A DNA stretch of 64,000 nt from a virus, in the IMG/VR virus record IMGVR_UViG_3300042013_000065; one strand, 5' to 3'. Shown here piece by piece: positions 60,511-64,000 of this stretch (the first letter of the stretch is position 1; every line of letters starts with the position of its first letter). Under the pieces are notes generated by a model. It had not been told where the DNA came from. It did not search any database and worked only from the letters and a program-made list of their open reading frames with translations. The translations under genes were made by a program, and so were the position numbers.

Positions 60511-61374
60511 TTATTCGTCTTCTTTTTCTTCGTCTTCTTTTTCTTCGTCTTCTTCATCATCGTATTCGAAATAGACTTCGCCGTCTTCATCAACGAACGC
60601 ATCCCATTCCTCTGCTTTCTCTGCCTTTTGTTTCTTCAGATAAGCAGTAAACAAACGCTTTGCCAATTCCTTTTCACCACGATACAACGCTTCAATTGCG
60701 TTAATGTATGGGCGCGCTGCCAAATAATTCATATGGTGCAGAATGGCATTGTGCCGTTCCTTTGCCAATTGATACATCTTTGGCGTAATCTTGAATGCTT
60801 CACCACGCAACAAATAAACGCGAATGTAGCAAAGGATTAATGCACTAACATCCTCTTCAGCGTAATAGGTTTTGGCATTGAAAAAGCATTCGAGAATTTC
60901 TTTCTTTATGTCTGCGCTGAAACGCATGATCTTGTCAGGATGCGATGCCTGCTTAATCTTTTTGAATAGCAAACGACATGACATTTCCGCAGGATCTTCG
61001 TCGGCGTCTTCGTCTGTCGATGCACCACCTTTACCGTCAAGGGAAAGGCTGCGCTTTTTCTTTTTCTTTTTCGGCATTGAAAGATCAAGGCCGGTGTGTA
61101 CGCATTTCAATGCTTTGTCGAGGCTGATTAGTTCTTTTGAATCGGACATTTCTTCGTCGTCATCATCAGATTCAGCTTCGTCGTCGTCTTCCATTGGATG
61201 CGCGCACAATGCACACAAAGCTGCGTAACCACGTTCGATTTTCAGCTTTAATGCCGCGAGCTTATCTTCGTCTTCGGCAATTTCCTGAAGGTCTTTCAGC
61301 GTCATTTCCGTTTCAGGAAGTTCGACGTATTCTTCTTCGTCTACAACGTCGGGCAATCCAGTAAGGTCGGCCAT
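60511..61374 (-). CDS. J-domain (DnaJ-like, HPD) protein with acidic tracts
   Basis: LFKKIKQASHPDK...F..AK.YY; flanking D/E and poly-K tracts. Confidence 0.7.
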   Translation of the reverse strand: MADLTGLPDVVDEEEYVELPETEMTLKDLQEIAEDEDKLAALKLKIERGYAALCALCAHPMEDDDEAESDDDDEEMSDSKELISLDKALKCVHTGLDLSMPKKKKKKRSLSLDGKGGASTDEDADEDPAEMSCRLLFKKIKQASHPDKIMRFSADIKKEILECFFNAKTYYAEEDVSALILCYIRVYLLRGEAFKITPKMYQLAKERHNAILHHMNYLAARPYINAIEALYRGEKELAKRLFTAYLKKQKAEKAEEWDAFVDEDGEVYFEYDDEEDEEKEDEEKEDE

Positions 61375-62039
61375 TAGATCATGCTCAATAGGTCTTGTTT
61401 CGAACTGCGCTTGCTATTCAGAAAGATCGCAAACTGCATTGTCATTCGGATTTTCTCAACGAAGAACGACACAGGATCGGCGCCATTCATTACGACGATT
61501 CGCGGAATATGATCGTAGATTTCCAGAAGGTCGCGCACCTTTTCAATCTTTTGCGGTGTACTATCTGGCGCCACATTGGTGATTACCAACATGGAAATAT
61601 TCTTTCGTTCTTTCAGGTCACGCAAATTGTCTTGATAACCACCTAACACCCGATGCCACAAAGGCAGAAGTTTTCCCCGGTGTGATTTGGTGGATTTCTG
61701 TTGATCAATCGCCGCTGCCATAAACGACAACGCCAGAAACTTTGCGCGATCATCTGTAGCCATGGAACCGATACCAATAATCGGGCTACCGTGCAAAGGA
61801 TTGGTCAACATCCGCTGGCAAGCTTCAATCTGTCGGCGAACACTCAAGCGCGGCAAATCGTAGTCTTCAGGAAGCCATGCGGGTACGTGCGGCGTAATGG
61901 ATGTCAGAGTATCGTCGAGTAGAAACGGGCTACGCATTACCTGAAACGCGGAACCATCAACGCCCTGCATTTTTAGAGTTTTCACCCTGTCTGAATCAAT
62001 GCGGAAATTCAGGTGTGGTGCTGGTGGACGACTGCTCAT
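61374..62039 (-). CDS. Possible degenerate DnaC/IstB-like AAA+ protein
   Basis: beta-loop-helix IIGIGSMATDDRAKFLA and SMLVITNV at Walker A/B-like positions but lacking GK[TS] and DD/DE. Confidence 0.35.
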   Translation of the reverse strand: MSSRPPAPHLNFRIDSDRVKTLKMQGVDGSAFQVMRSPFLLDDTLTSITPHVPAWLPEDYDLPRLSVRRQIEACQRMLTNPLHGSPIIGIGSMATDDRAKFLALSFMAAAIDQQKSTKSHRGKLLPLWHRVLGGYQDNLRDLKERKNISMLVITNVAPDSTPQKIEKVRDLLEIYDHIPRIVVMNGADPVSFFVEKIRMTMQFAIFLNSKRSSKQDLLSMI

Positions 62040-63536: not shown

Positions 63537-63722
63537 TTATTCCTTTTTATTGTATTGTTCGAAAGCCGTGTGGTTGTCGTACTGGAATTTATTGTACTGC
63601 ATGCGTTCCAGTTCATTTTGCGCGTCTTGCATGTCGAGCCATTCGCGGAAAATTGCGATAGCTCCAACGACAACAATCACAGCGCCTATACCAATTGCGA
63701 TCCAGCCGCCAGTTGTAATCAT
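63537..63722 (-). CDS. Small single-TM membrane protein
   Basis: GWIAIGIGAVIVVVGAIAIF. Confidence 0.75.
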   Translation of the reverse strand: MITTGGWIAIGIGAVIVVVGAIAIFREWLDMQDAQNELERMQYNKFQYDNHTAFEQYNKKE

Positions 63723-63910
63723 TTTTTGTGCTTCTGTGCGCGACGTTGGGCGCGGTTCAATTTCGGTTGGTACGTCTTCGGCTTGCCATGATCAATATGT
63801 CCAATGGTGCCGACATCGGGATTCAACATTGCTTTGAGCTTCGCTTGAAATGCGGCTTCCGCTTCTGCAATGTTGCCAAGGTGCACCGGTGTATCTGCTT
63901 CGAAATTCAT
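63719..63910 (-). CDS. 63-aa protein containing an isolated EF-Tu G1 (P-loop) motif
   Basis: NPDVGTIGHIDHGKP versus EF-Tu HVNVGTIGHVDHGKT; ATGA overlaps at both ends. Confidence 0.75.
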   Translation of the reverse strand: MNFEADTPVHLGNIAEAEAAFQAKLKAMLNPDVGTIGHIDHGKPKTYQPKLNRAQRRAQKHKK

Positions 63911-63999
63911 TTCTTATTTCTCCATAGCCAATAAATAAGAAACAGCAACCCTAAAAGAACCACAGAAACCCACGCAACGTAGGTAACATCTTTCAACGG
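63907..63999 (-). CDS. Membrane protein, 5'-truncated by window edge
   Basis: ...PLKDVTYVAWVSVVLLGLLFLIYWLWRNKK stop. Confidence 0.6.
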   Translation of the reverse strand, partial: PLKDVTYVAWVSVVLLGLLFLIYWLWRNKK

Positions 64000-64000
64000 G

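Follow-up and report, generated by a model that had tools for sequence, protein, structure and literature searches.

A 63-residue jumbo-phage protein with a conserved EF-Tu-like peptide: a tentative case of linear-motif mimicry

Why should a phage protein of only 63 residues carry an eleven-residue peptide that reads almost exactly as an N-terminal segment of elongation factor Tu (EF-Tu)? The question is raised by a 64,000-nucleotide stretch of viral DNA (IMG/VR record IMGVR_UViG_3300042013_000065), here called the window, in which an open reading frame (ORF) at positions 63719-63910 of the minus strand, stop included, encodes the peptide VGTIGHIDHGK. Pseudomonas phages Lu11 and HRDY3 are distant relatives of the window (approximately 67% nucleotide identity in conserved genes), which belongs to a Lu11-like jumbo phage with the ORF as one of its small accessory genes. 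Several rhizosphere and soil metagenome runs from different studies contain the stretch or the greater part of it; no RNA run is among those listed. As judged from its sequence, the 63-residue protein belongs, as a minimal and diverged example, to a hitherto undescribed class of phage proteins in which the N-terminal segment of EF-Tu is copied. The peptide probably has a job, with a function resting on mimicry.

The peptide spans residues 33-43 of the protein (63782-63814, minus strand) and corresponds to EF-Tu residues 14-24, which comprise the end of strand β1 and the P-loop. It is identical to EF-Tu VGTIGHVDHGK in 10 of 11 residues; both its location at 63814-63782 and this match, reported earlier in a first-pass annotation made from the sequence alone, were reproduced. 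The same annotation regarded GHIDHGK as a natural variant of EF-Tu, and indeed 13 of the 30 full-length EF-Tu genes recovered from IMG/VR carry it. A full match arising by chance was estimated by hand, from rough residue frequencies, at about 1.5e-14 per position and about 2e-9 per 64-kb window over six frames. In Pfam and NCBIfam, EF-Tu models are the only families matched by the protein, all far under their cut-offs. Pfam PF00009 gives E=0.073 (13.1 bits against a cut-off of 26.5), and four NCBIfam EF-Tu models give E=0.008-0.03 at profile positions 14-26, TIGR00485 scoring 13.5 bits against a cut-off of 522. The profile of the four-member family described below aligns by hhalign with EF-Tu N-termini over 15 columns, at a probability of 96% and a pairwise E of 2e-9. 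PHROG yielded weak matches only (phrog_27465, E=0.0015, over the motif), the Atlas feature search returned nothing at 0.9 or above, and no PADLOC-DB model matched the protein, its homologue or the neighbour genes.

The likeness to EF-Tu does not extend to the rest of the enzyme. Proline 44 (63779-63781, minus strand) replaces the Thr of G1, giving GKP and not GKT, and the 63 residues contain no G2 (RGITI), DxxG or NKxD. The protein is without the G2-G5 motifs and domains II and III, and it scores under the curated translational-GTPase cut-offs. The view that it is not a GTPase, taken in the first-pass annotation, is thus upheld. Pro is found at the same position in VPDG_00052 of Vibrio phage henriette, and Val in one homologue of the window protein (P0126, GKV).

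The family consists of four members, the window protein included, from five samples. P0131 shares 95% identity with the window protein and comes solely from a 1.6-kb contig, too short for gene context; P0002 shares 87% identity by BLASTP and 86% in alignments; P0126, of 79 residues, shares 65%. The pattern V-G-T-x-x-H-x-D-x-G-K is kept in all four, so that seven of the 11 residues are invariant. These residues (V, G, T, H, D, G and K) are encoded by differing, synonymous codons across the four genes, which argues that the peptide and not the DNA is under selection. In P0126, nine residues are inserted directly before the motif, two further upstream and four, together with substitutions, after it, and the motif itself is intact. 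The ratio of nonsynonymous to synonymous substitution rates (dN/dS) between the 63-residue gene and its homologue on contig L005 is 0.053, with dS = 1.74, near saturation; the two small neighbour genes have higher ratios, 0.13 and 0.15. The retention of the EF-Tu-like peptide claimed in the first-pass annotation therefore holds among the four known members, with purifying selection on the motif; the loss of the motif in homologues, named in that annotation as grounds for refutation, is not seen.

The motif is a conserved part of the family, but not uniquely. Three blocks are conserved, i.e., the N-terminal 31 residues, the motif and a basic tail. Residues 43-63 are identical in P0002, and N-R-x-Q-R-R-A-x-K-H-K-K is retained in P0126. 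Within the motif, the equivalent of EF-Tu Ile17 is I, L, P and P, and that of Gly18 is G, G, G and C, in the four members. This variation disfavours a strict need for β-strand pairing, and the peptide does not appear to be a faithful copy of β1.

The protein was modelled with AlphaFold2 from a two-row alignment (mean predicted local distance difference test score, pLDDT, 71; predicted template modelling score 0.27). The model consists of a helix at residues 14-29, coil at 30-52 and a second helix at 53-62. The first helix is amphipathic and acidic (63824-63871, minus strand; pLDDT 76-81) and is kept in all four homologues. The second lies in the Arg/Lys-rich C-terminal tail (residues 50-63, KLNRAQRRAQKHKK; 63722-63763, minus strand) and, with pLDDT up to 88, is the most confident part of the model. 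These features agree with the helical N-terminus and basic tail described in the first-pass annotation. The motif falls in the coil, at pLDDT of about 57-68. No β-(P-loop)-α unit is seen, as the model has no strand at 30-52 and the Walker A Thr is missing. According to the model, the EF-Tu-like peptide is displayed in a flexible linker between the two helices rather than folded.

The composition of the tail and its predicted helix (NRAQRRAQKHKK) are compatible with arginine-rich-motif RNA-binding peptides of the lambda N type, which are short Arg-rich helices recognising an RNA hairpin. A by-eye likeness of the tail to bL34, bS21 or RMF received no profile support, and no ribosomal-protein family matched the protein in Pfam (E≤1) or NCBIfam (E≤0.1). 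A complex prediction with Pseudomonas aeruginosa EF-Tu gave a score of 0.00 and a partner pLDDT of about 31-33, and counts neither way.

The segment is not confined to this family. In tblastn searches, the window protein matches small proteins of Vibrio phage henriette, Pseudomonas phage PaBG and Erwinia jumbo phages via the peptide alone. With a 26-residue EF-Tu N-terminal query, 143 of 50,697 phage records were matched by the true EF-Tu version and 86 by the henriette version. After removal of contaminating bacterial tuf and of real GTPases (Tet(M/O/W)), about 100 phage genomes are left, an estimate made among the matches listed. The carriers belong to phages of Vibrio, Erwinia, Aeromonas, Pseudomonas, Serratia, Cronobacter, Shewanella, Aggregatibacter and Burkholderia, and include VPDG_00052, a protein of Pseudomonas phage Jeremy, PaBG_00294, gp386 of Burkholderia phage FLC9, the Erwinia gp214 family and Aaphi23 ORF27. 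Their GenBank names are 'hypothetical', 'putative elongation factor Tu' or 'putative GTPase', and no description of these phage proteins was found in the literature. With at least 10 residues of EF-Tu 13-24 in a non-GTPase phage ORF, the window protein qualifies for this informal class.

Among 15 translated carriers, the best conserved core is (K)PHVNVGTIGH; GH[VI]D[HY]G is less conserved, and the G1 Thr is usually gone. The segment is mostly placed at the extreme N-terminus, with an EF-Tu-like start, and otherwise internally or near the C-terminus, and in many of the 15 the C-terminus is very basic. Carrier genes are found in early or accessory regions, such as the nin region of Aaphi23 and S1249 and the nucleotide-metabolism and early regions of T4-like and Vibrio phages. 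The window protein shares with the other carriers the copied segment in a non-GTPase ORF, the often lost G1 Thr, the often very basic tail and the early or accessory nature of the gene. Unlike them, its family has only an internal 11-residue core without KFERTKPH directly upstream, tolerates Pro or Cys at two core positions and has no detectable homology to them outside the motif.

A scan of IMG/VR for DNA coding for NVGTIGH gave at least 103 matches. Those listed comprise 30 full EF-Tu genes, seven ORFs cut by a contig end and 66 other complete ORFs, 48 of which have three or more further matches to EF-Tu and 16 fewer, the latter being perhaps due to chance. In the 48 listed ORFs the motif is N-terminal, internal or at the extreme C-terminus, and there is one fusion to a terminase large subunit and one to a YbcO nuclease. 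Neither a close relative of the window family nor GTIGH[VI]DHGKP was found in IMG/VR. A henriette-based search of a database of 5.8 billion proteins matched mostly contig-end EF-Tu fragments. Five independent families show full or almost full invariance of the EF-Tu block, which is the longest conserved block in three of them. A net charge of at least +5 in the last 20 residues is present in 23% of carriers, against 7.8% among control ORFs taken from the same loci (Fisher p=0.0013), the carriers being partly related, so that the counts are not independent.

An equally conserved EF-Tu 26-mer from the G3 region, 60 codons downstream, served as a control. It matched 19 phage records, nearly all of them genuine tuf, bacterial contamination or actual genes for other GTPases, with no clear phage mimic. 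Since the G3 segment is not copied, phages do not seem to carry random pieces of tuf. The recurrence of the N-terminal segment reflects either capture biased toward the 5′ end, or retention of that segment only, or both. Capture of the tuf 5′ end fits the many carriers that start as EF-Tu does (MSKEKFERTKP...), and retention by selection fits the way the segment is conserved inside families and is placed internally or at the C-terminus in some carriers.

The carriers show little sign of a common origin. By hhalign, the window family and the Jeremy-like family align over 16 motif columns and nowhere outside them, tails included. A shared ancestry of the basic tails, considered on the by-eye likeness of AQRRAQ in the window family to LQRRAF in the Jeremy-like family, accordingly finds no support. 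The class is probably polyphyletic and looks at least modular, common descent being undetected beyond the motif.

Several individual carriers deserve mention. Serratia phage Muldoon gp023 (L013:1198-1623; 141 residues) joins a capsid-like N-terminal stretch to a C-terminal EF-Tu motif (HVNVGTIGRVNLGK). The stretch resembles residues 250-278 of T4 gp23 (score 57, against 27±4 for shuffled sequences), the Pfam Gp23 model matches the protein at E=0.0085, and many jumbo-phage capsid genes are matched by tblastn. A Muldoon-type protein is also present in Serratia phage SP1, and the EF-Tu motif in PS2 and Cronobacter phage VP8. In IMG/VR, a 558-residue terminase large subunit (Terminase_6N; L110:3546-5219, minus strand) has an EF-Tu-like N-terminus with an almost intact P-loop (NVGTIGHVDNGKTTL) and matches PF00009 at 29.7 bits, above the cut-off, over 38 residues. 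In the Aggregatibacter phages Aaphi23 and S1249 (L007/L008:1486-1665), a standalone nin-region gene of 59 residues between ninB and ninG reads MSKEKFERTKP.VNVG.IGHVDHG; an IMG/VR relative (L051:3053-3634, minus strand) has the EF-Tu N-terminus fused to a YbcO nuclease domain. A 74-residue IMG/VR protein (L099:6241-6462, minus strand) has both the EF-Tu motif (INVGTIGHIDHGR) and, at its C-terminus, a SEC-C zinc motif of the SecA type (CPCRSGKKFKKCHG); the SEC-C motif binds SecB and ribosomes. In Erwinia phage Stratton, a RimI-like gene, annotated as 'ribosomal-protein-alanine acetyltransferase', lies directly upstream of the motif-bearing gp214 (gp213-gp214, L002:859-1749), and RimI has been reported to acetylate the EF-Tu N-terminus. 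Finally, P0127 (92 residues) contains a tandem pair of the EF-Tu N-terminal 45 residues, which may be a tufA/tufB assembly artefact or a real duplication.

EF-Tu is the object of several conflict systems. Doc acts on T382. Lit cuts EF-Tu at G59-I60 once the Gol peptide of the T4 capsid is bound, and Gol lies in the first quarter of T4 gp23 (PMC3014915). Cleavage by the type IV Thoeris caspase occurs after R45 and after R59 (10.1101/2024.10.24.620036), and Avs7 recruits EF-Tu via domains II-III (PMC13581612). The first-pass annotation had pointed out that the Lit and Doc sites lie elsewhere than the copied segment, and the same is true of the regions used by the Thoeris caspase and Avs7. These systems and the phage carriers have in common that EF-Tu is a recurrent battleground and that some longer carriers retain ERGIT[IV]. 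The window protein, by contrast, is without this stretch and without domains II and III, so Lit/Gol, the Thoeris caspase and Avs7 are not evident partners.

A role as Lit/Gol decoy or pseudosubstrate was rejected for the window protein, which lacks RGITI (R58-G59-I60). Its N-terminal helix was also dismissed as a Gol mimic, there being no T4 gp23 similarity above shuffles. The N-terminus of Muldoon gp023 was likewise discarded in this role, as it matches gp23 residues 250-278, outside Gol. Longer carriers with an N-terminal motif followed by E(K)xRGIT[IV] occur in the Vibrio phages Va2 (L015:1489-2076) and 150E35-1 (L006:1489-2208), and Aeromonas phage D3 has another (L017:1495-1905), with CGITI in the switch I stretch. 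To judge from this stretch, which spans the Lit site (G59-I60) and the caspase site (R59), the three proteins could be pseudosubstrates of Lit or of the type IV Thoeris caspase.

The explanation taken as likeliest for the window protein, with a rough probability of 0.4, is that the peptide would act as a portable linear-motif mimic. It would compete with EF-Tu, or with its nascent or unfolded form, for a factor of the host or of a rival element that reads this segment, such as an immune or toxin component directed at EF-Tu. Affinity for RNA or the ribosome would come from the Arg/Lys-rich C-terminal helix, an anchor that concentrates the protein where EF-Tu works. The first-pass annotation had likewise proposed a decoy of EF-Tu that titrates a host factor or defence protein, or else a ribosome-directed modulator. 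This explanation is favoured because the peptide is displayed in a linker in the model, is portable, is under selection and belongs to early or accessory genes. Two findings lend indirect support to a retained mimic, namely that the segment recurs on phage proteins otherwise unrelated and that the G3 segment is not copied, and the standing of EF-Tu as an established hub of phage-host conflict, seen with Lit, the Thoeris caspase and Avs7, is also counted in its favour. As EF-Tu residues 14-24 are mostly buried strand, a reader of the segment would see either the P-loop only or nascent or unfolded EF-Tu. A broader proposal, according to which many phage lineages graft the EF-Tu arm/β1/P-loop peptide onto carriers in order to engage a single host factor or an immune sensor that reads this part of EF-Tu while nascent or unfolded, is rated somewhat less probable. 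Under this proposal the 63-residue protein would be the minimal 'display' form, two helices presenting the peptide.

Several points weigh against mimicry by the peptide. With four members, the conservation of the motif is not clearly above that of the tail or of the N-terminal helix, and the equivalents of Ile17 and Gly18 vary here though they are among the best conserved positions in the other carrier families. The enrichment of basic tails is modest and not corrected for relatedness, and between families hhalign aligns the motif alone, not these tails. In folded EF-Tu, residues 14-24 are mostly buried in the central strand, so that a reader of the native protein would see the P-loop alone. 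The known EF-Tu-directed systems act on switch I, T382 or domains II-III and not on these residues. Moreover, no partner and no binding to any factor emerged from the present analysis, and a bias toward capturing the tuf 5′ end may account for part of the recurrence.

That capture bias is the core of an alternative in which the resemblance to EF-Tu is irrelevant. The peptide would then be the domesticated or neutral remnant of a captured tuf 5′ fragment, kept for a fold or interaction of its own, and it would recur because the 5′ end of tuf, a host gene expressed at very high levels, is often captured. Many carriers begin exactly as EF-Tu (MSKEKFERTKPHV...), like a 5′ gene fragment, and the longer forms retain EF-Tu up to about residue 65, ERGIT[IV] included, which suggests progressive decay. 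The window family may even keep the arm at its N-terminus (EKFE...P), although this candidate second piece of EF-Tu was not recovered by hhalign and is not significant. A remnant nevertheless appears unlikely in view of the purifying selection on the peptide through synonymous change, the near or full invariance of the block in five independent families, the internal and C-terminal placements and fusions to unrelated domains, and the failure to find the G3 segment, 60 codons downstream, in phage ORFs. Another alternative is a modulator directed at the ribosome or RNA, in which the Arg/Lys helix would lie on rRNA or tRNA and His19, Asp21 and Gly-Lys of the P-loop at the sarcin-ricin loop/GTPase centre, tuning factor binding or shielding this site. 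Within the family the tail is fully conserved, and the model is most confident there; carriers are enriched in basic tails, one IMG/VR carrier (L099) ends in a SecA-type SEC-C motif, and the P-loop residues H, D, G and K do not vary in the family while the strand positions do. Yet many carriers have no basic tail, and many lack GK or the whole P-loop after GH; across families it is the buried strand NVGTIGH, and not the ribosome-facing loop, that is best conserved. In addition, the tail matches no ribosomal-protein family, and a block of the GTPase centre would harm phage translation too. Such a modulator is accordingly judged quite unlikely.

If the loop itself were functional, it could be a minimal phosphate-, nucleotide- or metal-binding element, either a natural analogue of the β-(P-loop)-α polypeptides, whose ligands are phospho-compounds and nucleic acids, or a His/Asp(/Cys) metal site (H-x-D-H/Y). 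Engineered P-loop polypeptides are described as binding phospho-ligands (PMC10119929), some carriers (L111, L045 and L021) keep an intact GHIDHGKTTL with the following helix, and Cys or Met stands beside His/Asp in several families (GHCDHG, GHMDH, CHVDYGK). Only a low probability is nonetheless assigned to this role, given that the Walker A Thr is lost in the window protein and GK in many carriers, that AlphaFold2 shows no strand-loop-helix unit in the window protein or in the L111 family, and that the EF-Tu-specific NVGT upstream is left unexplained. For the L111-type proteins, with their intact GHIDHGKTTL, the model is of low confidence (pLDDT 59.6) and shows no folded P-loop unit. The peptide might, lastly, be a dominant-negative fragment, a free β1-like strand that disturbs the folding or assembly of new EF-Tu or other translational GTPases, as a means of host shut-off or as a weapon between phages. 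The copied segment forms the G domain's central strand in the established structure, and engineered fragments of essential bacterial proteins can inhibit by titration. However, the phage itself needs EF-Tu, existing EF-Tu is abundant and stable, and two of the four proteins in the family have Pro where EF-Tu has Ile17, which disfavours strand pairing; this is the least probable of the explanations considered.

The broader proposal of a peptide grafted onto many carriers, if true, would add a new node to EF-Tu-centred phage-host conflict and give viral linear-motif mimicry a counterpart in prokaryotes. That phage proteins of no common kinship repeatedly have a selected copy of another EF-Tu segment points to an interaction outside the known contacts at switch I and domains II-III, and discovery of the partner could reveal a new mechanism of defence or host takeover and a clear case of short-linear-motif mimicry in phages. 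At about 60 residues, the protein is an easy experimental subject. Known phage mimics and decoys include Ocr, a mimic of DNA, and DSAD1, a competitor of the DSR2 sensor (PMC11087589). Like these, the window protein is a small early accessory protein that resembles the recognition surface of another molecule, and it could accordingly act as a competitor. Unlike both, its candidate mimicry involves a short linear peptide of a host protein.

An ATGA at 63907-63910 (minus strand) overlaps the start codon of the 63-residue gene with the stop of an upstream small membrane-protein ORF, and a second ATGA at 63719-63722 overlaps its stop with the ATG of a downstream membrane-protein ORF of 61 residues (63537-63722). 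Overlaps at both ends had been noted in the first-pass annotation as support for translation; a Shine-Dalgarno-like GGAG is also present 9 nucleotides 5′ of the ATG (63920-63923). These features, together with the dN/dS values, indicate that the ORF is a genuine small accessory gene, coupled in translation and kept by purifying selection. Each flanking gene (63537-63722 and 63907-64000, both on the minus strand) encodes a single hydrophobic helix. The upstream neighbour has 75 residues on contig L004, and the downstream one is absent from the relative L125, so neither is a fixed partner of the 63-residue gene.

The 63-residue gene and its homologues P0002 and P0126 occupy the same place in related Lu11-like jumbo phages from soil and rhizosphere, within a co-directional run of small genes bounded by the ResIII helicase and the tail sheath. 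In Lu11 and HRDY3 this place is taken by a shorter, different set of small genes from which the gene is missing, which marks it as an accessory gene in a variable block. There are no tRNA genes in the window that would explain co-capture with tufB. Also in the window, an ORF of 221 residues (61374-62039, minus strand) shares 94% amino acid identity with its L005 counterpart, at a dN/dS of 0.06. The corresponding proteins of Lu11 (gp084) and HRDY3, of about 250 residues and encoded beside the tail sheath, are called 'DNA polymerase', an annotation that looks doubtful.

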